From Squalus acanthias (taxonomy: Eukaryota): DNA of 64,000 nt. How positions within the stretch are numbered: position 1 is the first letter of the stretch; the number at the start of each line of letters is the position of its first letter. This document shows, in pieces, positions 1-59,176 of this stretch. Location: assembly GCA_030390025.1 (NCBI GenBank), contig JASTWF010000333.1, positions 62,001-126,000 on the forward strand. The letters are read 5' to 3'. The notes under the pieces are model-generated. The model worked only from the letters and a program-made list of their open reading frames with translations. It ran no database searches and had not been told where the DNA came from. Both the position numbers and the translations under genes were made by a program.

Positions 1-1790
1 GTCTTAGTTATGGCGCAGGCATGTGGTCGGAAGCTTATTTCAGGGTCAAATATGACACCAAGGTTGTGAACAGTCTGGTTCAGTCTCAGACAGTTGCCAG
101 GGAGAGGGATGGAGTCAGTGGCTAGGGAACGGAGTTTGTGGCAGGGACCGAAAACAATGGCTTCGGTCTTCCCAAAATTTGATTGGAGAAAATTTCTGCT
201 CAACTGGATGTCGGACAAGCAGTCTGACAATTTAGAGACTGTGGAAGGGTCGAGAGAAGTGGTGGTGAGGTAGAGCTGGGTGTCGTCAGCGTACATGTGG
301 AAACTGACGCTGTGTTTTCGGATGATGTCGCCAAGGGGCAGCATGTAGATGAGAAATAGGAGGGGGCCAAGGATAGAACCTTGGGGGACCCCAGAGGTAA
401 TGATGCGGGAGCGGGAAGGGAAGCTGTTGCAGGTGATTCTCAGGCTATGATTAGATAGATAAGAATGGAACCAGGCAAGTGCAGTCCCACCCAGCTGGAT
501 GACGGTGGAGAGGCGTTGGAGAAGGATGGAGTGGTCAATCGTGTCAAAGGCTGCAGACAAGTCAAGAAGGATGAGGAGGGATAGTTTACCTTTGTCACAG
601 TCACAAAGGATGTAATTTGTGACTTTGATGAGAGCCGTTTCAGTACTGTGGCAGGGGCAGAAACCTGATTGGAGGGATTCAAACATGGATTTGCGGGAAA
701 GATGGGCACGAATTTGGGAGGCGACAACACATTCATGGACTTTGGAGAGTAAATGGAGGTTGGAGATGAGGCAGTAGTTTGCAAGGACGGAGGGGTCAAG
801 GTTTGTTTTTTTTGAGGAAAGGGGTGATGATGGCAGATTTGAGGGCGAGGGGGACAGTACCTGAGGAGAGAGAACCATTAACAATGTCAGCTAACATGGG
901 AGCCAGAAAAGGAAGTTGCGTGGTCAGCAGTTTGGTGGGAATAAGGTCGAGGGAGCAGGAAGTGGGTCTCATGGACAAGGTGAGCGCGGAGAGGTCATGA
1001 GGGGAGATCGGAGAGAAACTGGAGAAAGATGTGAGTTCAGGGTTAAGGCAGGGGGAACCTTAGAGCCTGGCTATACCTTCCACTACTTACAGGGAGGGTT
1101 CATTTAAGGGTAAGGTGTCATCACCCCTCAGCCAAGTTTCCTTCAGGGCCATGATGTCGATGCAGTCATCCATGATAAGCTCATAGATGGCAAGGGCCTT
1201 GTTCGCAAGTGAACGGACATTCTAGAGGGAGATGCGGAGAGGGCCGGTGATGGCTGCCCCACTGCCAGCATCCACAGGGTCAGCGCTGGGGGGGATGAGT
1301 TGGACGGGGAGGAGAGTGGCAAGATTTGCCCCTAGTGGACGCGCTGGGTGGGAAGATCGGCAAGAGAGTAGGATGGGACAGTTGGGGTTGCTGCTCGTAA
1401 GGAGACAGTGATGAGTGCCTCGATGGGCCCTTCATAGGATGCCAAGAGAGGCACAGAGGGAAGCTGTAAGCTTATCTAAGAGGGAGGCAAGTCTGGCAGG
1501 AGCGTAGGAAGGTCGAAGATTAATGAAGGATTGGGGTAGGGATTTGGGAGGGCAGAGTATCTGAGAGTGGAGAGATGAAAGGAGGCATGACGACAGGAGG
1601 GAGCAGTTAGGGAGAAATAGCGAGAGAAGGAAAAGGGGGAGAAAAAGTGGAAAAGCAGAGCTGAAAAACCAATAGAACCAGTTCAGCAGAGACACAGCCA
1701 CGGTTTAAGTTACAAAACCTTTTAGTAGCAGAGATAGAGACACAGCAGGTAAATCTTACAGTGTAATCCAGTGTAGTGCAGTGCAGAAAC
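1..1790 (-). mobile_element. Degenerate L2-clade LINE (RT and APE fragments, internally deleted; runs off the window edge)
   Basis: Minus strand reads GVPQGSILGP (~362-391), YADDTQLY (~270-293), SLDLIPTKLL...SAIITPFLKK (796-978) and an APE start NVRSLANKALAIYELIMDDCIDIMALKETW (~1130-1220). Frameshifted; 5' limit approximate. Confidence 0.85.
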
Positions 1791-2742
1791 ATAGTCTAGA
1801 TGTCCAGAGACGTCCAGGAGATCGGAAACCAATTTGACAAAAGAATTCTGCATCATAAGACTTGAAGCGACTGAAGAGCAGAGCAGAGCCACAGCCGCTG
1901 AGTCAAACAGTGTAGTCGAGCAACGAAGTCCTGTTCATGAGGAATCCAGTGATGGAAGTCAAGTTCCGGCATTTGAAAGAGCTCAGTGAGAACAAAGACT
2001 TGCCAGGGGATGGGCAGTGGACTCTGCAGGGGTAGCATTAAACTTGTGGTTTGAACTTGTAGTTTGGGCTGAAATGCCTTCACTATCAGAGGCAGGGTAT
2101 CTTAAGCAATGGAAGAAAGGAGATTGGGGGAAGAAAGGGCAAAGTACGGCAATGGATGACCAAGGATAGTGTTGAAGAGAAGAGCAGCTCAGTAAGGAGC
2201 TGCCAGCCCAGGAGCCACCTTGAACAGCAGATGAAAACAGCAAGAAGTGTTGAAAGTGTTGAAAAGCAATATTACTGCTTCAGAAAGTCTGCAAAACCCA
2301 TTTGCAACAACTTTAAATTGTCTGTTTAATGATTTTGAAAGTGCTGCTCTATGCCAGAATGAATTTCCCATTCAACTTCAACAATGACCATGTTGGAACT
2401 CTCAGAACCAGGATCCTCCACAAAGCTAGGCTTAGTCATACTCAAGGCTGCGCCAATTATCTAGCTGGGCTGGCAATCAAAGCGACTTGAAGAATATTTA
2501 ACTGGCGAATCAGTCAATTATATAGAGGAAAGTAATAATGGAGAACAGCCGTTCCTGGTGAAACACAATTGTTGAGGGTTCACTTGGGATCTCTGACTAC
2601 AGCAGATCTCTGACCTGACAAATTAAGTTGTACATAAACACAGCATGTTATACAGAGGCTGATGTATTTTACTTTGCTTAAATCATTCTAGAATTGTAGG
2701 CATGTTGCTTCTGTTCATGTTTCAAACCCCAAGCTTTAGGAG

Positions 2743-3629
2743 AAAAATGAGAAGTCGCACAACACCAGGTTATAGTCCAACAGTTTTATTTAAAATTACG
2801 AGCTTTTGGAGCTCCGCTCCTTCTTCAGGTAAAGGTACAGTGAGGGAATCTATTACACAGTATATATACACAGAGAACAATTTGTCTGCAGAGATACAAT
2901 CTGTTAGGGAGGCATTACATCAAAGACACATCAGAGTACAGCTAAGACAATGAGGTGGGTCACAGGGGGTCCAACGTGTCAAATGCTGCCGTCTGCAGTT
3001 AAGCTTTTAACTTTTTTTTTGTGTTTTTATTTAAAAACTGGAAAGACAGACAACGATGTCGAGTCACATTCTGTAGCGTGACATGAACCCGAGATTCCTA
3101 TTGAGGCCGTCCTCATGGGTGCGGAACTTGGCTATCAGTTTCTGCTCGATGATTTTGCGTTGTCGTGTGTCTCGAAGGCCACCTTGGAGAACGCTAACCC
3201 GCAGATCCGAGGCTGAATGTCCTTGACTGCTGAAGTGTTCCCCGACTGGGAGGTAAAAATCCTGCCTGGCGATTGTTGCGCGGTGTCCGTTCATACGTTG
3301 TCTCAGTGTCTGCATGGTCTCGCCGATGTACCATGCCGCGGTGCATTCTTTCCTGCAACGTATGAGGGAGACAACGTTGGCCGAGTCACATGAGTATGTA
3401 CCATGTACCTGGTGGGTAGTGTCCTCACGTGTGATGATGGTATCTGTGTTGATGATCTGGCATGTCTTGCAGAGGTTGCCGTGGCAGGGTTGTGTGGTGT
3501 CGTGGTCGCTGTTCTCCTACAAAAGCTACGAAAGCTCGTAATTTTAAATAAAACTGTTGGAGACTATAACCTGGTGTTGTGCGACTTCTCATTTTTGTCC
3601 ACCCCAGTCCAACACCGGCATCTCCGCAT
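2743..3629 (-). mobile_element. 5'-truncated Penelope-like element (GIY-YIG endonuclease 3' part) with inverted pLTR pieces
   Basis: Minus ORF 3064-~3515: PCHGNLCKTCQ...SCDSANVV...WYIGETMQTLRQRMNGHR. Inverted repeat ~2743-2805 vs ~3531-3596. Flanking direct repeat CAAGCTTTAGGAG at 2730-2742 and 3630-3642. Confidence 0.9.
2797..2832 (-). ncRNA. Minimal hammerhead-ribozyme-like motif in the Penelope pLTR (probably mutated)
   Basis: Minus strand CTGAAGA-A-GGAGC-gga-GCTCC-AAAA-GCTC. Stem II pairs perfectly. GAAA reads AAAA here but CGAAAGCTC in the second copy (~3529-3537). Confidence 0.6.
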
Positions 3630-14842: not shown

Positions 14843-15218
14843 TTTGTGTCTGTCTTCACGCAAGAAGATGCAAAAAACTTCCCGGAAATAATGCACAACC
14901 AAGGGTCTAGCGAGAATGAGGAACTGAAAGAAATGAGTATTTGTAAAAAAATAATACTGGAGCAATTAATGGAACTGAAAGCCTTTAAATCCCCTGGACC
15001 TGATGGCCTACATCCTAGGGTTTTGAAAGAGGTGGCTATAGAGATAGTGGATGCATTGGTTGTCATTTTCCAAAATTCCATAGATTCTAGAACGGTTACC
15101 GAGGATTGGAAGGTAGTAAATGTAACCCCACTATTTAAGAAAGGAGGGAGAGAGAGAACAGGGAACTACAGACCAGTTAGCCTGACATCAGTAGTAGGGA
15201 AAATGCTAGAATCTATTA

Positions 15219-18200
15219 TTTTTTTTTCTTCGTTTATGGGATCAGGGCGTCGCTGGCAAGGCCAGCATTTATTGCCCATCCCTAGTTGCCCTTGAGAAGG
15301 TGATGGTGAGCCGCCTTCTTGAACCGCTGCAGTCCATGTGGTGAAGGTGCTCCCACAGTGCTATTAGGTAGGGAGTTCCAGGATTTTGACCCAGCGACGA
15401 TGAAGGATCGGCAATATACTTCTAAGTCAGGATGGTGTGTGACTTGGAGGGGAACTTGGAGGTGGTGGTGTTCCCATGCGCCTGCTGCCCTTGTCCTTCT
15501 AGGTGGAAGAGGTCGCGGGTTTGGGAGGTGCTGCCAAATAAGCCTTGGCGAGTTGCTGCAGTGCATCTTGTAGATGGTACACACTGCAGCCACTGTGAGC
15601 CGATGGTGGAGGGAGTGAATGTTTAAGGTGGTGGATGGGGAGCCAATCAAGCAGGCTGCTTTGTCCTGGATGGTGTCGAGCTTCTTGAGTGCTGTTGCAG
15701 CTGCACTCATCCAAGCAAGTGGAGAGTATTTCATCACACTCCTTACTTGTGCCTTGTAGATGGTGGAAAGGCTTTGGGGAGTCAGGAGGTGAGACACTCG
15801 CCACAGAATACCTAGCCTCTGACCTGCTCTTGTTGCCACGGTATTTATGTGGCTGGTCCAGTTAAGTTTCTGGTCAATGGTGACCCCCAGGATGTTGATG
15901 GTGGGGATATCACCGATGGTAATGCCGTTGAATGTCATGCGGAGGTGGTTAGACTTTCGCTTGTTGGAGATAATCATTGCCTGCCACTTCTGTGGCGCGA
16001 ATGTTACCTGCCACTTATCAGCCCAAGCCTGAATGTCGTCCAGGTCTTGTTGCATGCGGGCATGGACTGCTTCATTATCTGAGGAGCTGCGAATGGCACT
16101 GAACATTGTGCAGTCATCAGCGAACATCCCCACTTTTGACCTTATGTTGGAGGGAAGGTCGTTGATGAAGCAGCTGAAGATGGTTGGGCCTAGGACACTG
16201 CCCTGAGGAACTCCTGCAGCAATGTTCTGGGGCTGTGATGATTGACCTTCAACCACCACAACCATCTTCCTTTGTGCCAGGTATGACTCCAGCCAGTGGA
16301 ACGTTTTCCACCCGATTCCCATTTACTTCAGTTTTACTAGGGCTCCTTGATGCCACACTCGGTCAAATGCTGCTTTGATGTCAAGGGCTGTCACTCTCAC
16401 CTCACCTCTGGAATTCAGCTCCTTTGTCCATGTTTGGACCAAGGCTGTAATGAGGTTGGGAGCCGAGTGGTCTTGGCGGAACCCAAACTGGGCATCAGTG
16501 AGCAGGTTATTAGTGAGTAAGTGCCGCTTGATAGCACTGTTGATGACACCTTCCATCACTTTGCTGATGATTGAGAGTAGACTGATGGGGCGGTAATTGG
16601 CCGGATTGGATTTGTCCTGCTTTTTGTGGACAGGACATACCTGGACAGTTTTCCACATTGTCGGATAGATGCCAGTGTTGTAGCTGTACTGGAACAGCTT
16701 GGCTAGAGGCGCAGCTAGTTCTGGAGCACAAATCTTCAGCAAGATAGCCGGGATGTTGTCGGGGCCCATAGCCTTTGCTGTATCCAGTGCGCTCAGCCGT
16801 TTCTTGATATCACATGGAGTGAATCAAATTGGTTGAAGACTGGCTTCTGTGATAGTGGGGACCTCGGGAGTAGGCCAATATGGATCATCCACTTGGCACT
16901 TCTGACTGATTTTGGTTGCAAACGCTTTAGCCTTGTTTTTTGCACTCACGTGCTGGGCTCCACCATCATTGAGGATGGGGATATTCATGGAGACTCCTCC
17001 TCCCGTTAGTTGTTTAATGGTCCACCACCATTCAAGACTGGATGTAGCAGGACTACAGAGCCCTGTCTATAGCATGCTGCTTCCGTTTTTTAGCATGCAT
17101 GTAGTCCTGTGTTGCAGCTTCCCCAGGTTGGCACCTCATTTTTACATACGCCTGGTGCTGCTCCCGGCATGCTCCTCTACACTCCTTATTGAACCAGGGT
17201 TGGTCCCCTGGCTTGATGGTAATGGTAGAGTGAAGGATATGCTGGGCCATGAGGTTACAGATTGTGGTGGAATACAATTCTGCTGCTGCTGATGGCCCAC
17301 AGCGCCTCATGGATGCCCAGTTTTGAGCTGCTAGATCTGTTCTGAATCTATCCCATTGAGCACAGTGGTAGTGCCACCCAACACGATGGAGGGTGTCCTC
17401 AGTGTGAAGACGGGACTACGTCTCCACAATGGCTGTGCAGTGGTCACTGCTATCAATGCTGTCATGGACAGATGCATCTGCGACAGGTAGATTGATGAGG
17501 ATGAGGTCAAGTAGGTTTTTCCATCATGTTGGTTCTCTCACCACCTGTCGCAGGCCCAGACTGGCAGTTCTGTCCTTCAGGACTAGGCCAGTTCGGTCAG
17601 CAGTGGTGCTACCGAGCCACTCTTGGTGATGGACATTGAAGTCCCCCACCCAGAGTACATTCTGTGCCCTTGCTACTCTCAGTGCTTCTTCCAAGTGGTG
17701 TTCAACATGGTGGAGTACTGATTCATCAGCTGAGGGAGGGCGGTAGGTGCTAATCAGGAGGAGGTTTCCTTGCCCATGCTTGACCTGAAGCCATGAGAGT
17801 TCATGGGGTCCAGAGTCAATGTTGAGGACTCCCAGGGCCACTCCTTCCTGACTGTATAGCACTGTGCCACCACCCCTGGTGGGTCTGTCCTGCCAGTGGG
17901 ACAGGACATACCCAGGGATGGTGATGGAGGAGTCTGGGACATTGGCTGAAAGGTATGATTCTGTGAGTATGACTATCTCAGGCTGTTGCTTGACTAGTCT
18001 GTGGGACAGCTCTCCCAATTTTGGCACAAGTCCCCAGATGTTGGTGAGGAGGACTTTGCAGGGTCGACTGGGCTGGGTGTGCTGTTGCCGTGTCCATAGC
18101 CGGGGCCGAGGTCGATGCCAGGTGGTCCGTCCGCTTTCATTCTTATTATGTTTTGTAGCGGTTAGTTACAACTGAGATGACTTTGACTTGCTAGGCCATT

Positions 18201-18460
18201 TCAGAGGGCAGTTAAGAGTTAACCACATTGCTGTGGGTCTGGAGTCACATATAGTCCAGACCAGGTAAGGACGGCAGATTTCCTTCCCTATGACAATTCG
18301 ATAGTTTCTTGGTCACCATTACTGATACTAGCTTTTTATTCCAGATTTATTTAATTAACTGAATTTAAATTCCCCAGCTGCTGTGGTGGGATTTGAACTC
18401 ATGTCTCTGGATCATTAGTCTAGGTCTCTGAATTACTAACCCAGCAACATTACCACTACC
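15219..18460 (-). mobile_element. Near full-length single-ORF CR1/L2-group LINE (family B; APE + RT) with tRNA-like 5' head
   Basis: APE KVLLTNIWGLVPKLGEL...IVILTES...VGDFNVHH; RT NYRPISLLS, ALDIKAAFDRVWH, GVPQGSVLGP, FADD; 3' AATAAA and A-tail at ~15219-15227; a few stops. Confidence 0.92.
18388..18460 (-). promoter_or_regulatory. tRNA-derived internal Pol III promoter-like head (partial A box, B box)
   Basis: Minus strand GGTAGTGGTAATG (18460-18448) and GAGTTCAAATCCC (18400-18388), matching the B-box consensus GTTCRANNC. Confidence 0.75.
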
Positions 18461-20629
18461 ATAAGGACGTGGTAACAGGGCACTTATAAAATAATAAGAG
18501 GATTGGGCAGAGTCAACACGGATATATGAAAGGGAAATCTGTTAAAGTTTTTTGAGGTTGTAGCTAGCAGAATAGATAAGGGGGAACCAGGGGATGTGGT
18601 GTATTTGGATTTTCAGAAGGCATTCGATAAGGTGCCACACAAGAGGTTATTAAACAAAATTAGGACTCATGGGATTGGGGGTAATATACTAGCATGGATT
18701 GAGGATTGGTTAACACACAGAAAACAGAGTAGGAATAAACGGGTCATTTTCGAGTTGGCAGGCTGTAAATAGTGGGGTACCGCAAGGATCAGTGCTAGTG
18801 CCTCAGCTATTCACAATCTACACCAATGATTTGGATGAGGGGACCAAATGTAATATATCCAGGTTTACTGATGCAAGGAGGCTACAAGGGGATATAGACA
18901 GGCTAAGTGAGTGGGCAAGAACATGGCAAATGGAATATAATGGTAGGAAAAATAGAAAAGCAGAGTATTTTTTAAATGGTGAGAGATTGGGAAAAGTTGG
19001 TGTTCAGAGGTACCTGGATGTCCTTGTGCACGAATCACTAAAAGTTAACATGCAGGTACAGCAAGCAATTAGGAAAGCAAATGATATGTTGGCCTTTATT
19101 ACAAGAGGATTTGAGTAATGAGTAAAGACGTCTTACTGCAATAATATAGGGCCCTGGTGAGACCACGCCTGGAGTATTGTGTACAGTTTTGGTCTCCTTA
19201 ACTAAGGAAGGATATACTTGCCATAGAGGGAGTGCAACGAAGGTTCTCCAGACTGGTTCCTGGGATGGGGGGATTGTCCTATGAGGACGGATTGAGTTGA
19301 CTAGCCCTATATTCTCTAGAGTTTAGAAGAATGAGAGGTGATTGCATTGAAGCATACAAAATTCTTACAGGGCTTGACAGGGTAGATGCAGGGAGGATGT
19401 TTCCCCTGGCTGGGGAGTCTAGAACTAGGGGTCACAGTCTCAGAATAAGGGGTCGGCCATTTAGGACTGAGATGAGGAGAAATTTCTTCACTCAGAGGGT
19501 GGTGAATCTTTAGAATTCTCTACCCCAGAGGGCTGTGGAGGCTCAGTCGTTGAGTATATTCAAGACAGAGATCGATGGATTTTTGAATATTAAGGGATTT
19601 AAGGGATATGGGGATAGTGCAGGAAAGTGGAGCTGAAGTAGAAGATCAGCCTTGATCTTATTGAATGGCGGAACAGGCTTGAAGGACCAAATGGTCTACT
19701 CCTGCTCCTATTTCTTATGTTCTCTTCCTCTAATGTAAATACAGACGCAAAATAACTATTCAACATGTCCGCCATTTCCTTATTGTCATTGACAATATTA
19801 CCGTTATCAGTTTTCAAGGGGCCAACATTGCTCCTGACCACCCTCTTTTTCCTTATATAATTGTAAGAAATCTTTGTGTTGATTTTGAGATCCCTTGCAA
19901 GTTTCTTTTCATACTCCCTTTTTGTAGCTCTTACTGACTTTTTTGTGACCCTTTGCTGTTCTTTGTATCTTTCCCATTTGCCAAGATCATTGCTATTTTT
20001 TGCATTTTTGTATGCTTTTTCTTTTAGTTTTATGTTGTCTCTTACCTCTTTAGTCATCCATGACTGTTTTTTTGACAAGTAGAGCTCTTGCCCCTAAGGA
20101 TTATAATCTGGTGCTGTATCACATTAAATTCTTTTTAGAATATCTCCCACTGATCTTCTGTCATTTACCCATTAACAGATTTGCCCAGTTTACTGTGGAC
20201 AGTCTCTGTCTCATCGCATTGAAGTCAGCCTTACCTAAATCTAGAATCTTAGTAGCTGTTTCATGTTTCTCCCTTTCAAACACTACTTTGAACTCAATCA
20301 TGTTAAGATCGCTATTAGATCAATGTTCACGCACAGTTAGGCTGTTAACTAAATCTGGCTCATTATATGATGACACCAAGCATTGATGCTTTGCTTTTTT
20401 ATTCCCAGCTGTCAGCACACTTTTAGCTGTGTTTTCATTACTGATGGTGCATTCCTTTGCTAGTTATTTGCCATTTACCTCAATAAGTTCTGTAATATAA
20501 CTGAAAGGGCTGGATTTTCCTCCACTATCCCAACCCCAAATCAGGCAGAATAGTGTCAGAATTGACAGTAAAGTGGAGAGGTGAAGCCTACTAGCACCTC
20601 CACACCCTGATCTCGATTTTCCTCCTTTC

Positions 20630-33980: not shown

Positions 33981-34948
33981 AAAGAGTTTGTCCACACACT
34001 AATTGTAGTAAAGATGTAAATGCATTCTTTATAAACAGGTTGATAATTTTGGCCATAGCTGTGTACAAAGGAACTCTCTTCAATGTCCCCCGACCAGGCA
34101 ACTTTCCATCTATTGGTAACTCACAGTAACATACCCCCATGCAGCAAATGAGATTCTAAATGTAAAGCCATATCTTGTCAGTGTTGAAGCTGGTTCTCAT
34201 TTTCTGGCACAGAGTTACAGTGGTGGTAATGCTCTCGGTCAATGAATCAGAAATAGTAATTAATGCAATTAGTGGTTTGGCGGATCCGATTAACTAAAGC
34301 CCCAGTGCATCTTCTGAATAATTATGTGATATGTATGGAGCTTCAGAGTGCAAGTTTAGCATCACTGTAATGTGTTATCTGCTTTGCACCAAAGTTGCAG
34401 TTTGCAGCAGCGGTGGATTTAGACATTGATGAAGGGAAATGTGAGTCCCAAAGGTGTAAGATTTATTGCCTTGGGGCATGGCTCAGCCAGAGATAATTTT
34501 GATTTTTGACACTTTATTTGGTACGTTTTCTGTCATTTTGGAGCCTACTGGAATTTATCCTAGATAGGTGACAGATACTTTATATATGAAAAGCAAGGTA
34601 GTTGCAGGCATTTAAGTCTAACTTTATAAGATCCAGTTCCCTTTCATTGGGACTGTAACCCTAAATATATCAAATGAATTTGTGAACTGAAATCTTTTGC
34701 CATAAACACTGACAATAATCCTGACTTCCAGTGGATTCTACACTCACAAGACAAAGTCGGCTGACTAACAGCGTGCGTACCACAGTGAAACAGTTCTCTC
34801 ACAAGCCTCATGGTTAGAAATGGTGGAATCAATGAAAAATTGTGGCAAAAAAAGTAGTGTGGCAATGAATAAATAATGCCTGAATGTGGAAAAAAGTACT
34901 GAATTTTCAGCAACAGAAGAATCCTCCCCCTCACCCACAAAAAAATCT

Positions 34949-36491
34949 TTTTTTTAATCGTTTATGGGATGTGGGCGTCGCTGGCAAGGCCAGCATTTAT
35001 TGTCCATCCCTAATTGCCCTTGAGAAGGTGGTGGTGAGCTGCCTTCTTGAACCGCTGCAGTCCGTGTGGTGAAGGTACTCCCACAGTGCTGTTAGGTAGG
35101 GAGTTCCAGGATTTTGACCCAGCAACAATGAAGGATCAGCGATATATTTCCAAGTCAGGATGGTGTGTGACTTGGAGGGGAACTTGGAGGTGGTGGTGTT
35201 CCCATGCGCCTGCTGCCCTTGTCCTTCTAGGTGGAAGAGATCGCGGGTTTGGGAGGTGCTGCCGAAGAAGCCTTGGCGAGTTGCTGCAGTGCATCTTGTA
35301 GATGGTACACACTGCAGCCAAGATACGCCGGTGGTGGAGGGAGTGAATGTTTAAGATGGTGGATGGGGTGCCAATCAAGTGGGCTACTTTGTCCTGGATG
35401 GTGTCAAGCTTCTTGAGTGTTGTTGGAGCTGCACTCATCCAGGCAAGTGGAGAGTATTTCATCACACTCCTTACTTGTGCCTTGTAGATGGTGGAAAGGC
35501 TTTGGGGAGTCAGGAGGTGAGACACTCGGCGCAGAATACCTAACCTCTGACCTGTTCTTGTTGCCACAGTATTTATGTGGTTGGTCCAGTTTCTGGTCAA
35601 TGGTGACCCCCAGGACGTTGATGATGGGGGATTCGGCAATGGTAATGCCGTTGAATGTCAAGGGGTGGTGGTTAGACTCTCGCTTGTTGGAGATAGTCAT
35701 TGCCTGGCACTTCTGTGGCACGAATGTTACCTGCCACTTATCAGCCCAAGCCTGAACGTCATCCAGGTCTTGTTGCATGGGGGCATGGACTGCTTCATTA
35801 TCTGAGAAGTTGTGAATGGCGCTGAACACTGTGCAGTCATCAGTGAACATCCCCACTTCTGACCTTATGTTGGAGGGAAGGTCATTGATGAAGCAGCTGT
35901 AGATGGTTGGGCCTAGGACACTGCCCTGAGGAACTCCTGCAGCGATGTCCTGGGGCTGTGATGATTGACCTTCAACCACCACAACCATCTTCCTTTGTGC
36001 TGGGTATGAGTCCAGCCAGTGAGAGTTTTCCCCCCGATTCCCATTGACTTCAGTTTTACTAGGGCTCCTTGGTGCCACACCCGGTCAATGCTGCCTTGAT
36101 GTCAAGGACAGTCACTCTCACCTCACCTCTGGAATTCAGCTCATTTATCCATGTTTGGACCAAGGCTGTAATGAGGTTGGGAGCCAAGTGGTCTTGGCGG
36201 AACCCAAACTGGGCATCAGCGAGCAGGTTATTGGTGAGTAAGTGCCGCTTGATAGCACTGTTGATGACACTTTCCATCACTTTGCTGATGATTGAGAGTA
36301 GACTGATGGGGCGGTAATTGGCCAGATTGAATTTGTCCTGCTTTTTGTGGACAGGACATACCTGGGCAGTTTTCCACATTGTCGGATAGATGTCAGTGTT
36401 GTAGCTGTACTGGAACAGCTTGGCTAGAGGCACGGTTAGTTCTGGAGCAGAAGTTTTCAGTACGATAGCCGGGATCTTGTCGGGGCCCGTA
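34949..36491 (-). mobile_element. 5'-truncated family B LINE
   Basis: Near-identical to ~15220-16770; 12-bp TSD ACAAAAAAATCT (34937-34948, 36492-36503). Confidence 0.92.
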
Positions 36492-38437: not shown

Positions 38438-40585
38438 AGAAACATAGAAACATAGAAGATAGGAGCAGGAGTAGGCCATTCGGCCCCTCGAGCCTGCTCC
38501 GCCATTCGATGAGATCATGGCTGATCATCCAAACTCAGTACCCTGTACCTGCCTTCTCCCCATATCCCTTGATACCTTTAGCTTTAAGAAATATATCTAA
38601 CTCATTCTTGAATGTATTTAATGACTTGGCCTCAACTACCTTCTGTGGTAGAGAATTCCACAGGTTCACCACTCTCTGGGTGAAGAAATTCTTCCTCATT
38701 TCTGTCCTAAATGGCTTACCCGTTATCCTTAGATTATGACCCCTGGTTCTGGACTCTCCGACCATCGGGAACATTCTTCCTGCATGTAGTTTGTCCAGAC
38801 CTGTCAGAATTTTATATGTTTCGATGAGATCCCCTCTCATTCTTCTATACTCCAGCGAGTATAAGCCCAATCGACCCAATCTCTCCTGATATGTCATTCC
38901 TGCCATCCCAGGTATCAGCCTTGTGAATCTTCGCTGAACTCCTTCCATGGCAAGAACATCCTTCCTCAGATAAGGCGACCAAAACTGCACACAGTACTCA
39001 AGGTGTGGTCTCACCAAGGCCCTGTACAACTGCAGCAGGACATCCCTGTTCCTATACTCAAACCCTTTCGCTATGAAGGCCAACATACCATTTGCCTTCT
39101 TCACCGCCTGCTGCACCTGCATGCTTACTTTCAGCGACTGGTGCACAAGGACACCCAGGTCTCGTTGCACTTCCCTTATCTAGATCATTAATGTATATTG
39201 TGAATAGCTGCGGTCCAAGGACCTATCCCTGCAGTACCCCACTAGTCACTGCTTGCCACTCGGAAAAAGACCCATTAATTCCTACTCTCTGCTTTCTGTC
39301 CGCCAACCAGTTCTCTATCCAAGTCAATACCTTGCCCCCAATCCCATGTGCCTTAACTTTACACGCTAATCTCTTATGCGGGACCTTATGAAAAGCCTTT
39401 TGAAAGTCCAAATACACCACATCTACTGGTTCTCCCTTATCTATTCTCCCAGTTACATCCTCAAAAAATTCCAGTAGATTAGTCAAGCACGATTTACCTT
39501 TTGTAAATCCATGTTGACTTTGTCTGATCCTGTCACTGTTTTTCAAGTGCTCAGCTATTACATCCTTTATAATGGACTCTAGCATTTTCCCCACTACCGA
39601 TGTCAGGCTTACCGGTCTGTAATTCCCCGCTTTCTCTCTACCACCCTTTTTGAATAGTGGGGTAACATTAGCTACCCTCCAATCCATGGGTACAGTTCCA
39701 GATTCCATCGAATGTTGGAAGATGATCAGCAATGCATCTACTATTTCCAGGGCCACTTCCTTAAGTACCCTAGGATGTAGATTATCAGGCCCTGGGGATT
39801 TATCGGCCTTCAATCCCATCAATTTCCCTAACACTATTTCCCTGCAAATACTGATTTTTTTCAGTTCCTCCCTTTCATCAGACCGTATGTTCTCCAACAT
39901 CTCTGGGAGGTTATTTGTGTCCTCCTTTGTGAAGACAGAACCAAAATATGCATTTATTTGGTCTGCCATTTCTTTGTTCCCCATTATAACTTCCCCCGCT
40001 TCTGACTGCAAGGGACCTACACTTGATTTCACTAATCTTTTTCTCTTCACATATCTATAAAAGATCTTACAGTCAGTTTTTATGTTCCCAGCAAGCTTAC
40101 TTTCATATTCTATTTTCCCCTTCTTAATTAATCCCTTTGTCCTCCTTTGTTGAATCCTAAACTGCTCCCAATCCTCAGGGTTACCGCTTTTTCTGGCCAA
40201 TTTATATGCCCTCGCCTTGGATCTTATGCTATCCCTAATTTCCCTTGTTAGCCACGGTTGAGTCACCCTTTTTGTTTTATTCTTATGCCACACTGGGATG
40301 AACAAATTCTGTAGTTCATCCATGCAGTCTTTGAATGTTTGCCATTGCCTATCCACCGTCAACCCTTTGAGTGACATTCCCCAATCAATCCTACCCAATT
40401 TGCGCCTCATACCATCGTAGTTTCCTTTATTTAAATTCAGGACCCTAGTCTCTGATTCAACTACTTCACTCTCCATCCTAATGAAGAATTCTATCATATT
40501 ATGATCACTCTGACCCAAGGGGCCTCGTACAACAAGATTGCTAATTAATCCTTTCTCGTTACATAATACCCAGTCTAAGATGACC
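38438..40585 (-). mobile_element. Young CR1 LINE, 5'-truncated, with internal RT deletion; nested in a family C-like element (~38190-38437, 40586-~40810)
   Basis: Open ORFs 39223-40585 and 38535-39170; the FADD region is missing at ~39175; tail (agaaacat)n. Confidence 0.92.
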
Positions 40586-40834
40586 TGTCGGGAGGGGGAT
40601 CGTGAAGAAGTTAAGTTGAGCGTTAAGCTTTTAATTTTTATTGTAGTTTTCCTTGTGGGCCAGGAGGAACAGGAGTGCTGTTCCGGACCCCACAAAGGAA
40701 GCCTTGGGCCTCTCTTAACACGGGCTTCCCCCAATCGCATCCACCCCCCTTCCCCCTCTTACCACTTAACTGACTGCTGGGGACCGATCTCACGGGTCCC
40801 CGGCTACGGCCTCCTGTCTGCAATCTTCCTTAAC

Positions 40835-57514: not shown

Positions 57515-59176
57515 TTTTTAAAAATTCGTTTATGGGATCAGGGCATCGCTGGCAATGCCAGCATTTATTGCCCATCCCTAGTTGCCCTTGAGAAGGTGGT
57601 GGTGAGCCGCCTTCTTGAACCGCTGCAGTCCGTGTGGTGAAGGTACTCCCACAGTGCTGTTAAGTAGGGAGTTGCAGGATTTTGACCCAGCGACGATGAA
57701 GGATCGGCGATATACTTCTAAGTCAGGATAGTGTGTGACTTGGAGGGGAACTTGCAGGTGGTGGTGTTCCCCTGTGCCTGCTGCCCTTGTCCTTCTAGGT
57801 AGAAGAGGTCGCGGGTTTGGGAGGTGCTGCCAAAGAAGCCTTGGCAAGTTGCTGCAGTGCATCTTGTAGATGGTACACACTGCAGCCACGGTACGCCGGT
57901 GGTGGAGGGAGTGAATGTTTAAGGTGGTGGATGGGGTGCCAATCAAGCGGGCTGCTTTGTCCTGGATGGTGTTGCGCTTCTTCAGTGTTGTTGGAGCTGC
58001 ATTCATCCAGGCAAGTGGAGAGTATTTCATCACACTCCTTACTTGTGCCTTGTAGATGGTGAAAAGGCTTTGGGGAGTCAGGAGGTGAGACACTCACCGC
58101 AGAATACCTAGCCTCTGACCTGCTTTTGTTGCCACGGTATTTATGTGGCTGGTCCAGTTAAGTTTCTGGTCAATGGTGACCCCCAGGATGTTGATGGTGG
58201 GAGATTCAGCGATGGTAATGCCGTTGAATGTCAAGGGGAGGTGGTTAGACTCTTGCTTGTTGGAGATAGTCATTGCCTGGCACATCTGTGGCGCGAATGT
58301 TACCTGCCACTTATCAGCCCAAGCCTGAATGTCGTCCTGGTCTTGTTGCATGCGGGCATGGACTGCTTCATTATCTGAGGAGTTGCGAATGGCACTGAAC
58401 ATTGTGCAGTCATCAGCGAACATCCCCACTTCTGACCTTATGTTGGAAGGAAGGTCATTGATGAAGCAGCTGAAGATGGTTGGGCCTAGGACACTGCCCT
58501 GAGGAACTCCTGCAGCGATGTCCTGGGGCTGTGATGATTGACCTCCAACAACCACAACCATCTTCCTTTCTGCTAGGTATGACTCCAGCCAGTGCAGCGT
58601 TTTCTCCCTGATTCCCATTGACTTCAGTTTTACTAGGGTTCCTTGATGCCACACTCTGTCAAATGCTGCCTTGATGTCAAGGGCAGTCTCTCTCACCTCA
58701 CCTCTGGAATTCAGCTCCTTTGTCCATGTTTGGACCAAGGCTGTAATGAGGTTGGGAGCCAAGTGGTCTTGGCGGAATCCAAACTGGGCATCCGTGAGCA
58801 GGTTATTGGTGAGTAAGTGCCGCTTGATAGCACTGTCGATGACACCTTCCATCACTTTGCTGATGATTGAGAGTAGACTGATGGGGCGGTAATTGGCCGG
58901 GTTGGATTTGTCCTGCTATTTGTGGACAGGACATATATGGGCAGTTTTCCACATTGTCGGATAGATGCCAGTGTTGTAGCTGTACTGGAACAGCTTGGCT
59001 AGAGGCACGGCTAGTTCTGGAACACAAGTCTTTAGCACGATAGCCGGGATGTTGTCGGGGCCCGTAGCCTTTGCTGTATCCAGTGCGCTCAGCCGTTTCT
59101 TGATATCACATGGAGTGAATCGAATTGGCTGAAGACTGGCTTCTGTGATGGTGGGGACCTCGGGAGTAGGCCGATA
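57515..59176 (-). mobile_element. 5'-truncated family B LINE
   Basis: RT ORFs 58094-58855 and 57578-58093 are near-identical to 15282-16769. Confidence 0.92.

Follow-up and report, generated by a model that had tools for sequence, protein, structure and literature searches.

A coding LINE of Squalus acanthias with a tRNA-like head and a sense strand depleted of T runs suggests copying by RNA polymerase III

Family B is a ~3.27 kb non-LTR retrotransposon with a single ORF (endonuclease and reverse transcriptase), the first ~95 nt of which form a tRNA-derived, SINE-type head. Over 3.2 kb, the sense strand of its master carries no run of four T (T4) and none of the T3-containing sub-optimal terminators of RNA polymerase III (Pol III). 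The depletion of T runs in the family is real and graded by run length. Together with the tRNA-like promoter, this purge suggests a coding LINE that is copied by Pol III. No other single reading accounts for the purge as well as selection for Pol III read-through, which we give about an even chance of being correct. The family-B parts of the window, the 64,000-nt stretch of DNA analysed here, are listed in Table 1.

Table 1 Family-B copies and element parts in the window
Feature	Position	Strand	Details
Family-B LINE copy, decayed	15219..18460	-	Two in-frame stops, at least one frameshift; ~12 nt of the true 5' end missing; sense T4 = 0
tRNA-derived head with Pol III type-2 promoter-like A and B boxes	18378..18460	-	Rfam tRNA model, weak
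5' UTR 'body', common to short SINE-like deletion derivatives	18140..18377	-	
Apurinic-type endonuclease, part of the single ORF	17524..18165	-	Pfam Exo_endo_phos_2 1.3e-08, Exo_endo_phos 2.8e-08
Reverse transcriptase and C-terminal part of the ORF	15282..17066	-	Pfam RVT_1 2.1e-37; two in-frame stops = X
3' UTR and tail	15219..15281	-	AATAAA 15268-15273, then ...CGAA and an A-run; terminal T-run absent in this copy
Family-B copy, 5'-truncated	34948..36491	-	Internal T4 = 0; tail T2A8; flanking T7 2 nt downstream (34939-34945)
Family-B copy, 5'-truncated	57515..59176	-	Private internal T4 58062-58065; terminal T5 57520-57524, then A5 57515-57519

Within 15230-18460 (3231 nt; sense T content 0.207) the plus strand holds no run of four or more A, nine of three or more A and 15 of four or more T, against a window background of 5.27 A4+ runs per kb on the same strand. 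The three longest AAAA-free plus-strand stretches of the whole window (3288, 1555 and 1198 nt) are the three family-B copies. A preliminary description had reported that sense T4 is absent here and from the copy at 34949-36491, with several T4 in the neighbouring CR1 (38438-40585) and L2 (1-1790) elements, and our recounts agree, at 0, 0, 6 and 9, respectively. For the third copy it had given a single run, the private one that yields SLFTI where the two other copies read SLSTI. That run is present, but the count is two, the second being the terminal sense T5 at the extreme 3' end of the element.

A full-length element encodes ~950 aa, with ORF remnants over element positions ~310-3170, and shows the traits of an APE-type LINE: both domains in one sense ORF, 5'-truncated copies (two in the window, many elsewhere in the genome) and a conserved 3' end. 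Intact members of the family begin with the tRNA-like head, which is thus its real 5' terminus. Eighteen of 39 fetched genomic loci align end to end with the window copy, head to tail in one piece, and all seven further copies also align from head to tail; 25 of 30 loci found with the head continue from it into at least 1 kb of LINE. Every full-length copy examined bears the head on a full-length coding LINE. The start, GG(G)AAC, lies 12 nt upstream of that of the window copy and is seen in at least 21 of 29 copies; the A box begins 9 nt downstream of it. The protein is 25-32% identical to those of the CR1 and L2 copies in the window. Its closest near-full-length protein relatives, at 36-37% identity, are unnamed, and naming a clade from protein names was set aside.

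The T4-free sense strand was the ancestral state of family B. Nineteen of 30 full-length genomic copies have no internal T4; the remainder carry 14 runs at 14 places, all private (two, at 2651 and 2653, are perhaps one site), and any T4 column is common to at most 2 of the 30. The tree is star-like, with 1.034 substitutions per site on terminal branches against 0.044 on internal ones. Every copy from this single burst is thus a sample of the same ancestor, so that P-values from different copies lack independence. On such a tree, a test of shared against private T4-creating changes is powerless. One apparent counterexample with a head and shared T4 (L073/L074) was rejected: it is a single family-B copy (element 3-2614) adjoining a CR1 piece, inside a 27-bp satellite and duplicated at 96.6% identity, and its T4 runs are located in the CR1 part.

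How far zero T4 exceeds chance depends on the null chosen. For the window copy, mononucleotide shuffles gave a mean of 4.66 T4 runs (P(0) = 0.008), dinucleotide shuffles 1.81 (P(0) = 0.14) and synonymous-codon shuffles 1.54 (P(0) = 0.17). The synonymous-codon P(0) ranged from 0.13 to 0.17, and from 0.07 to 0.37 in the T4-free copies of a further set. The preliminary description had built its case on T4; zero T4 in 13-17% of synonymous shuffles is a borderline frequency, which does not overturn the case outright, but T4 alone is weak evidence, too weak to support the claim unaided. For an element with these amino acids and codons zero T4 is unremarkable, which counts against Pol III read-through. 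Composition and chance are one rival account: a T-poor, Phe-poor protein with C-ending codons (Phe 2.3% and TTT:TTC = 4:13 in the intact 755-codon stretch of L073) would make zero T4 about a 1-in-7 event, and a deficit of T3 motifs could then come from codon-pair or peptide context unmodelled by the shuffles, combined with a motif set chosen post hoc. The single effective sample favours this account too. A control in favour of read-through is the family-B protein recoded to the codon preferences of CR1 or L2, where 3.6-4.0 T4 are expected in 2265 nt (P(0) = 0.01).

The longer spectrum of T runs speaks against composition and chance. The window copy has nine T3+ runs, where mononucleotide shuffles give 22.7 (0/5000 reach nine) and codon shuffles 14.3 (P = 0.028). 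The L073 stretch has 5 against 10.0 in codon shuffles (P = 0.006), and 12 further copies have 6-12 against 10.9-15.6 (P from <0.0005 to 0.09). Pooled over 30 copies and set against the geometric expectation, T1 stands at 1.12x, T2 at 0.96x, T3 at 0.51x and T4+ at 0.10x, whereas runs of A, C and G are at expectation; the depletion is confined to T and to the sense strand. The dinucleotide shuffle was set aside as the main null because the low TT count itself comes from the missing long runs, as T2 at 0.96x indicates.

Sub-optimal Pol III terminators have been defined experimentally as T3VT, TVT3 and T2AT2 in PMC3141230, where a T3 standing alone hardly stops the polymerase in vitro. We counted these three motifs and T4+ together as terminator-class sites, a combined set fixed after the separate counts had been seen. 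No such site occurs in 11 of the 30 full-length copies. In four near-master copies (L079, L076, L035 and L033) there are zero sites, where codon shuffles give 4.3-5.3 (P = 0.0002-0.006) and mononucleotide shuffles ~10.5-11 (0/2000 reach zero). The corresponding counts for A, C and G match expectation. The P-values thus stay low even given family B's own codons, which argues further against a compositional origin.

The other LINEs compared lack this pattern. None of 40 other LINE ORFs is free of T4; three represent families of the dogfish genome itself, and 37 are relatives on metagenome contigs, without a detected tRNA-like head. The 37 relatives carry 2-45 T4 and 7-93 terminator-class sites, none having zero, and so are not depleted to the same degree as the headed family. 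These controls are not close kin, the best being 46% identical over a partial match (residues 446-755). In the genome itself, observed against expected sites are 18 and 14.5 in a Tx1/L1-like ORF, 9 and 10.7 in CR1, and 9 and 7.2 in L2. The caveat raised at the outset, that LINE sense strands are often T-poor, is met by the run-length spectrum and by the nine T4 of a control LINE with equal T content (0.208). Two relatives whose T content (0.188 and 0.191) is as low as that of family B keep 3 and 7 T4, and 7-10 sites in 2.1-2.5 kb. Four of the 37 relatives also reach P < 0.05 in the same shuffle test, a point in favour of composition and chance, yet each of them still has 29-50 sites. The sole relative with an upstream A/B-box-like pair (L122) was rejected as head-bearing, with no Rfam tRNA at E <= 10 and T-runs between the pair and the ORF. 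Overall, we regard composition and chance as distinctly improbable.

Strand specificity implies that the depletion acts at the level of RNA or transcription, and this is compatible with avoidance of U tracts for reasons unrelated to Pol III. U runs may bind U-tract proteins, destabilise the RNA or aid premature cleavage or cryptic processing, whether the RNA came from a Pol II unit or from read-through. Such avoidance would account for two observations that fit Pol III less well: isolated T3, which barely terminates in vitro (PMC3141230), is also about halved, which selection for read-through does not strictly require; and T2CT2 (15% termination in vitro), which we left out of the terminator set, is not depleted, at 1-2 per copy. 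Avoidance of splice sites or poly(A) sites is contradicted by pyrimidine tracts of >=6, >=8 and >=10, which are not depleted (for >=8, 7-9 observed against 5.0-5.6), and by AATAAA, which is not depleted either (3-4 against ~1.2 expected). Moreover, the purge is seen in 0 of the 40 other LINE ORFs, so a family-B-specific cause is needed, and the specific feature found is the Pol III-type head. We consider U-tract avoidance unrelated to Pol III rather unlikely.

Recurrent T4+ runs are restricted to the extreme 3' end of the element. There, the tail reads ...CGAA-T(n)-A(m), with n = 0-7 and n+m mostly 9-12 (range 6-14) in the 33 tails in which both were scored; in these, the A-run tended to be shorter where the T-run was longer. 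AATAAA lies ~45 nt from the end. T4-T7 directly after ...CGAA, followed by a short A-run, occurs in 16 of 70 copies of this 3.3-kb coding LINE of a non-mammal and 0-3 T in the other 54, and a 3' end without T4 in 54/70 copies counts against Pol III read-through. In the flank at +13..+45, T>=4 is present in 22/70 copies against a 14.8% background, and long T-runs are enriched directly downstream of insertions (T>=6 in 7/70 against 1.6%). Target-site duplications, sought in order to assign T(n)A(m) to element or target, were short or unclear. This tail and the flanking T-runs would fit a rule that the element keeps sequences resembling its own 3' start site out of its interior, where T-runs would mimic the point at which reverse transcriptase or endonuclease engages and so yield inactive copies that are 3'-truncated or self-targeted. 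A-runs would make up the second half of a start site, yet internally they are at expectation, and 29 of 30 copies retain a T3A3 motif in the 5' UTR. We know of no documented mechanism of T(n)A(m) mimicry, and this explanation seems highly improbable.

We return, then, to Pol III, and to the head as its candidate promoter. The A box has no mismatch and the B box two, relative to the consensus, with tRNA-like spacing. An A and B box pair is found in two of three family-B heads scanned, against one chance-like match in 309 kb of control DNA. The Rfam tRNA model matches the head at 18378-18446 with 16.1 bits (E = 1.4), which is weak against a gathering score of 29; neither ARAGORN nor Rfam at its gathering score returned a tRNA match. 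An RNase P-type processing role for the head was set aside, since minimum-energy folds of four heads show neither cloverleaf nor acceptor stem, itself weak evidence. Pol III units are usually shorter than ~0.5 kb, and their RNA is uncapped, which makes translation a problem; at ~3.27 kb, family B lies outside the usual short size of type-2 units. Among the sequencing runs on record, none recorded as RNA contained the element. In contigs of four runs of guessed kind, depth was high at the head and 5' UTR and at the 3' end, resembling DNA copy number, and is therefore uninformative on expression.

The preliminary description had held that the coding sequence is selected to stay readable by Pol III. 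This is partly supported, in that the depletion of terminator-class sites goes beyond the shuffles and is absent from the 40 other LINE ORFs; that Pol III is the cause is our interpretation of the sequence pattern. Under this interpretation, Pol III would initiate at the head, as it necessarily would for the SINE-like derivatives that bear the identical promoter sequence, and would continue through the ORF. Master copies whose RNA was truncated at an internal T-run would leave no full-length progeny, and T-runs would thereby be purged at the levels of amino acids, of codons and of the context in which codons stand. Full-length RNA made by Pol III would serve at least as the template for reverse transcription, with protein made from that same RNA or from rare Pol II or read-through transcripts.

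Short derivatives of ~400-540 nt accompany the full-length element, their joints connecting element ~269-307 to ~3171-3231, and of the 40 best matches at least 13 have one and the same deletion junction. Internal-deletion derivatives of family B have thus been amplified as SINE-like elements. A SINE2 is by definition a short, non-coding element that joins a small-RNA head to a LINE tail; this description does not fit the full-length element and fits only these derivatives. A fuller scenario, which we hold more tentatively than the read-through reading itself, is that family B is a LINE that propagates autonomously, its genomic RNA being transcribed by Pol III from an internal promoter of tRNA origin. 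Its 3.2-kb coding body would be kept free of stop signals, and SINEs would arise from it by internal deletion, a SINE head having been, or having become, the promoter of the LINE.

The division between Pol II LINEs and Pol III SINEs underlies models of SINE origin and of the host silencing of each class. A coding LINE readable by Pol III would, if confirmed, break this division, provide a natural kilobase-long Pol III transcript, let SINEs arise from LINEs simply by deletion, and pose sharply the question of how a Pol III-made LINE RNA is translated. Because terminators can be counted in this way in any collection of LINEs, the idea lends itself to direct tests, both comparatively and at the bench. 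In the openly accessible literature searched we found no tRNA-headed LINE, no Pol III-made LINE and no natural 3 kb Pol III transcript; the last two count against the Pol III reading.

Among known systems, SINE2 elements, exemplified by the elasmobranch HE1 SINE and its partner LINE HER1 (a table row in PMC3747384), share with family B a 5'-terminal head with A and B boxes and a 3' tail common to the short and the long element. HER1 is set beside family B here by description only, as given in that row. The short derivatives of family B have exactly the SINE2 build. Unlike in SINE2 systems, however, the family-B head sits on a full-length protein-coding LINE, and the short elements look like internal deletions of that LINE. 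The tail of family B may resemble L2 tails and its body those of CORE-SINEs. Stringent-type LINEs of the L2/CR1 clade with partner SINEs, such as UnaL2 with UnaSINE1 (PMC3747384), are likewise compact, at ~3.3 kb, with endonuclease and reverse transcriptase in a single ORF, a 3' tail that is conserved and copies that are truncated at the 5' end. They differ from family B in being taken as Pol II units without a small-RNA head; LINEs are stated to be Pol II units in two recent papers (PMC5786205 and PMC10886601), which counts against the Pol III reading. A further comparison is with the Cassandra TRIMs, LTR retrotransposons with a 5S-type Pol III promoter and terminator (PMC10886601). With family B they have in common a captured small-RNA promoter from which Pol III presumably transcribes the retroelement. 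Cassandra, however, is short, non-coding and of the LTR type, whereas family B is a coding non-LTR element of ten times the usual length of a Pol III unit.

The family-B copy at 15219-18460 encodes its endonuclease and reverse transcriptase in a single sense-strand frame, which two stops and one or more frameshifts interrupt. The preliminary description had found no TTTT (T4) on this sense strand, that is, no AAAA on the + strand, and had proposed selection to keep the element readable by Pol III. On recount its T4 and A4 counts were all borne out, with one addition: the copy at 57515-59176 has one more T-run on its sense strand, a T5 (57520-57524) at its extreme 3′ end before an A5. The three longest AAAA-free + strand stretches of the whole window (3288, 1555 and 1198 nt; background 5.27 runs per kb) are the three family-B copies. 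Positions 15200-18480 recur on a large contig, C2, of the 3.7-Gb assembly (G000:C2:148343521-148348600; loci L002 and L031) at 99.85% identity, flanks included; this was taken as the window locus (G000:C2595:62001-126000) assembled twice and left out of the counts. The small contig of the window may be an alternative haplotype of the C2 region.

Family-B features and control LINE reading frames, with counts of T4 and of pooled terminator-class sites
Feature	Window positions	Strand	T content	T4	Sites (codon-shuffle mean)
Family-B copy, decayed non-LTR retrotransposon	15219-18460	minus			
Apurinic-type endonuclease of this copy	17524-18165	minus			
Reverse transcriptase of this copy	15282-17066	minus			
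5′-truncated family-B copy	34948-36491				
5′-truncated family-B copy	57515-59176				
CR1 ORF	39226-40758	minus	0.233	5	9 (10.7)
L2 ORF	3-890		0.276	3	9 (7.2)
Tx1/L1-like ORF, 1306 codons, same genome			0.208 (same as family B)	9	18 (14.5)

A tRNA-type head sits at the 5′ terminus of this coding LINE. With the first 321 nt as query, the genome yielded 4579 candidates, 40 of which were scored as matches, and the head was continuous with at least 1 kb of LINE in 25 of the 30 loci returned. Thirty-nine of the 40 matched places were fetched in full: 18 aligned head to tail with the window copy in one piece, 22 were kept as full-length, and 17 were dropped (the locus on C2 that duplicates the window copy, and 16 that were truncated, rearranged or had lost large internal parts). 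Seven further full-length copies came from a query with a copy in better condition. At least 21 of 29 copies start at GG(G)AAC, 12 nt upstream of the start of the window copy. The A box lies 9 nt from the family-B 5′ end and the B box ~60 nt beyond it; the Rfam tRNA model matches the head weakly (16.1 bits, E = 1.4), and ARAGORN finds no tRNA in it. The head of the window copy is damaged at 18447-18460 (minus strand), and its A box is incomplete because the first ~12 nt of intact copies are missing.

Amplified deletion derivatives, in which the first ~270-430 nt are joined to the last ~60-155 nt of the element, carry the same head as the LINE. They include SINE-like forms of 480-540 nt (L056, L043 and 12 further places), and similar joints are numerous in contigs from four public runs. 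Of the 40 best matches, 13 or more have one and the same junction type, at 82-89% identity, so that amplification came after the deletion. Elsewhere, at L073 (G000:C3445) and L074 (G000:C53), a family-B copy that covers element positions 3-2614 and keeps 755 codons open in one stretch adjoins a CR1 fragment, and the unit is embedded in a 27-bp satellite array at two places 96.6% identical. Family-B pieces of 70-86% identity also lie within gene models of two shark species; the annotated proteins concerned (P0003, P0030, P0031 and P0039; aldo-keto reductase-like, anoctamin-7-like and others) probably reflect LINE fragments engulfed by the models.

The copies form a star tree, with branches summing to 1.034 (terminal) vs 0.044 (internal) substitutions per site. 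The family is therefore a single burst from one master, and all copies sample one ancestral sequence. This ancestor lacks T4 altogether and contains seven T3 runs, of which two lie in the 5′ UTR. Internal T4 is absent from 19 of the 30 full-length copies, which together hold 14 such runs at 14 places (2651 and 2653 are possibly one site); at most two of 30 copies have a T4 at any alignment column, and the T runs of four or more are all post-insertion. Sense-strand runs of four or more A number 13-21 per copy.

Judged by the first refuting condition of the preliminary description, that zero T4 be common in the shuffles, the absence of T4 is insufficient by itself for the claim. Synonymous-codon shuffles reach zero at a frequency of 0.17 for the window copy (mean 1.54 T4) and 0.126 for the open stretch of L073 (mean 1.8), and in 12 further copies the probability of at most the observed count is 0.07-0.49. 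For the window copy, mononucleotide shuffles average 4.66 (P(0) = 0.008) and dinucleotide shuffles 1.81 (P(0) = 0.14). The latter condition away part of the signal, since the missing long runs themselves depress TT (rho 0.715), rather than any general dislike of TT. Composition plus chance would be compatible with the codon-shuffle zeros; given the graded run-length spectrum, confined to T, and the terminator-class counts below, we consider it unlikely.

The depletion is specific to T, to strand and to longer runs. When the 30 copies are taken together, T runs of length 1, 2, 3, and 4 or more occur at 1.12, 0.96, 0.51 and 0.10 times the geometric expectation, and runs of A, C and G match theirs. 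As A:T tracts are symmetric in DNA, normal A-runs and missing T-runs on one strand point to transcription or RNA. T runs of at least three number 9 vs 14.3 in synonymous shuffles for the window copy (P = 0.028), 5 vs 10.0 for the L073 stretch (P = 0.006) and 6-12 vs 10.9-15.6 for 12 further copies of the 30 (P <0.0005 to 0.09). Amino-acid choice, codon choice and codon context all act in the same direction: family-B codon usage yields 1.45-1.93 T4 per kb on other LINE proteins and 0.78 on its own, and the family-B protein yields 3.6-4.0 T4 in 2265 nt with CR1 or L2 codon usage (P(0) = 0.01) and 1.66 with GC-rich Tx1/L1-like usage (P(0) = 0.157). Some other avoidance of U-tracts at the RNA level, through protein binding or RNA stability, would also account for the halved isolated T3, and is possible, though we consider it rather unlikely. 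Family B shows no deficit of pyrimidine tracts of length at least 6, 8 or 10, and AATAAA occurs 3-4 times vs ~1.2 expected, so the pattern is not explained by selection against poly(A) signals or splice-acceptor tracts.

As described in PMC3141230, T4 is enough for termination in mammals; T3VT2/T2VT3, T3VT/TVT3 and some T2VT2 are sub-optimal terminators (T2AT2 32%, T2CT2 15%), and T2GT2 and isolated T3 are nearly inactive. In seven family-B copies, T3VT/TVT3 number 0, 0, 1, 3, 0, 0 and 2 vs 3.3-4.2 in codon shuffles; six of the seven lack T3VT2/T2VT3 and T2AT2, with low expectations (0.5-0.8), and T2CT2 (0-2 per copy) is not depleted. Pooling T4+, T3VT, TVT3 and T2AT2 and counting them in all 31 sequences, we found zero sites in 11 of 30 full-length copies. 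Four clean copies have 0 sites vs 4.3-5.3 in codon shuffles (P = 0.0002-0.006, somewhat flattering because the set was fixed after the separate counts, with T2CT2 left out) and ~10.5-11 in mononucleotide shuffles, where zero was reached in 0 of 2000. The pattern X4, X3NX, XNX3 gives 0 vs 4.0-4.7 for T (P = 0.003-0.005), and its counts for A, C and G match those expected. Neither canonical Pol III terminators nor the weak ones that contain T3 were present on the ancestral sense strand.

This terminator-purge pattern is missing from 40 other LINE ORFs, the three same-genome controls of the table and 37 relatives; none of the 37 was found to have a tRNA-like head, within the limited power of head detection. 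These relatives come from 80 loci in metagenome contigs, retrieved with a profile built from family B plus its 11 best protein relatives. We analysed the 37 loci whose frame stays open for 600 or more codons and is free of N, the sole ground on which the other 43 were left out. The 37, which are 24-46% identical to family B and hence not close sisters, have 2-45 T4 and 7-93 terminator-class sites, zero in none. Depletion reaches P < 0.05 in four, still with 29-50 sites, and the two whose T content (0.188, 0.191) is as low as that of family B carry 3 and 7 T4, with 7 and 10 sites, over 2.1-2.5 kb. None of the 37 has a tRNA called by ARAGORN (which misses family B's own head too), and only 28 have at least 150 nt upstream, which limits the head search. 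An A/B-box scan gave one weak pair, in L122; it was rejected as a tRNA-like head, lacking Rfam support and being followed by T-runs. In the window's CR1 copy, T runs of at least three are mildly low against codon shuffles (13 vs 18, P = 0.035) and T4 is as expected (5 vs 5.1).

The element ends in ...CGAA-T(n)-A(m), with AATAAA ~45 nt upstream. Tails of this form lie at window 57515-57524 and 34939-34957 and at the 3′ ends of loci L083-L121 and L032-L082. Among 70 copies, n = 0 to 7 occurs in 7, 31, 9, 7, 8, 2, 5 and 1, independently of tail sequence variants. Sixteen of the 70 thus have a terminal run of T4 or more; nowhere else in the element do T-runs of this length recur. Avoidance of tail mimics within the body is a further candidate cause of the depletion, which we hold very improbable. 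In the 33 of 39 tails with both runs scorable, longer T-runs tend to go with shorter A-runs, and n+m is mostly 9-12 (range 6-14; none between 14 and 20). The T(n) tail fits a U-ended RNA from a terminator, and equally a target preference or slippage as reverse transcription begins; the target-site duplications are short or indistinct. The flank from +13 to +45 is rich in long T-runs (T≥6 in 7 of 70 vs 1.6% background). Three copies (L041, L082, L043) have a T7 and then the same five letters after the tail; a single source locus transduced at its 3′ end could account for this, as could a target motif.

Pol III would initiate at the head and read through the element, and selection on the master would have kept the body clean. 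The proposed selection for Pol III readability thus stands on the T-, strand- and run-length-specific depletion and no longer on the T4 absence alone; judged from sequence, we put read-through as the cause of the depletion at evenly balanced chances.

In the literature searched, we found no LINE with a tRNA head or made by Pol III. PMC5786205 and PMC10886601 treat LINEs as Pol II units, and the only LINE regions to which they trace SINE bodies are the 5′ parts of RTE and Vingi elements. Family B may be the LINE of the HER1/HE1 pair described from elasmobranchs in 1999 and listed in PMC3747384.
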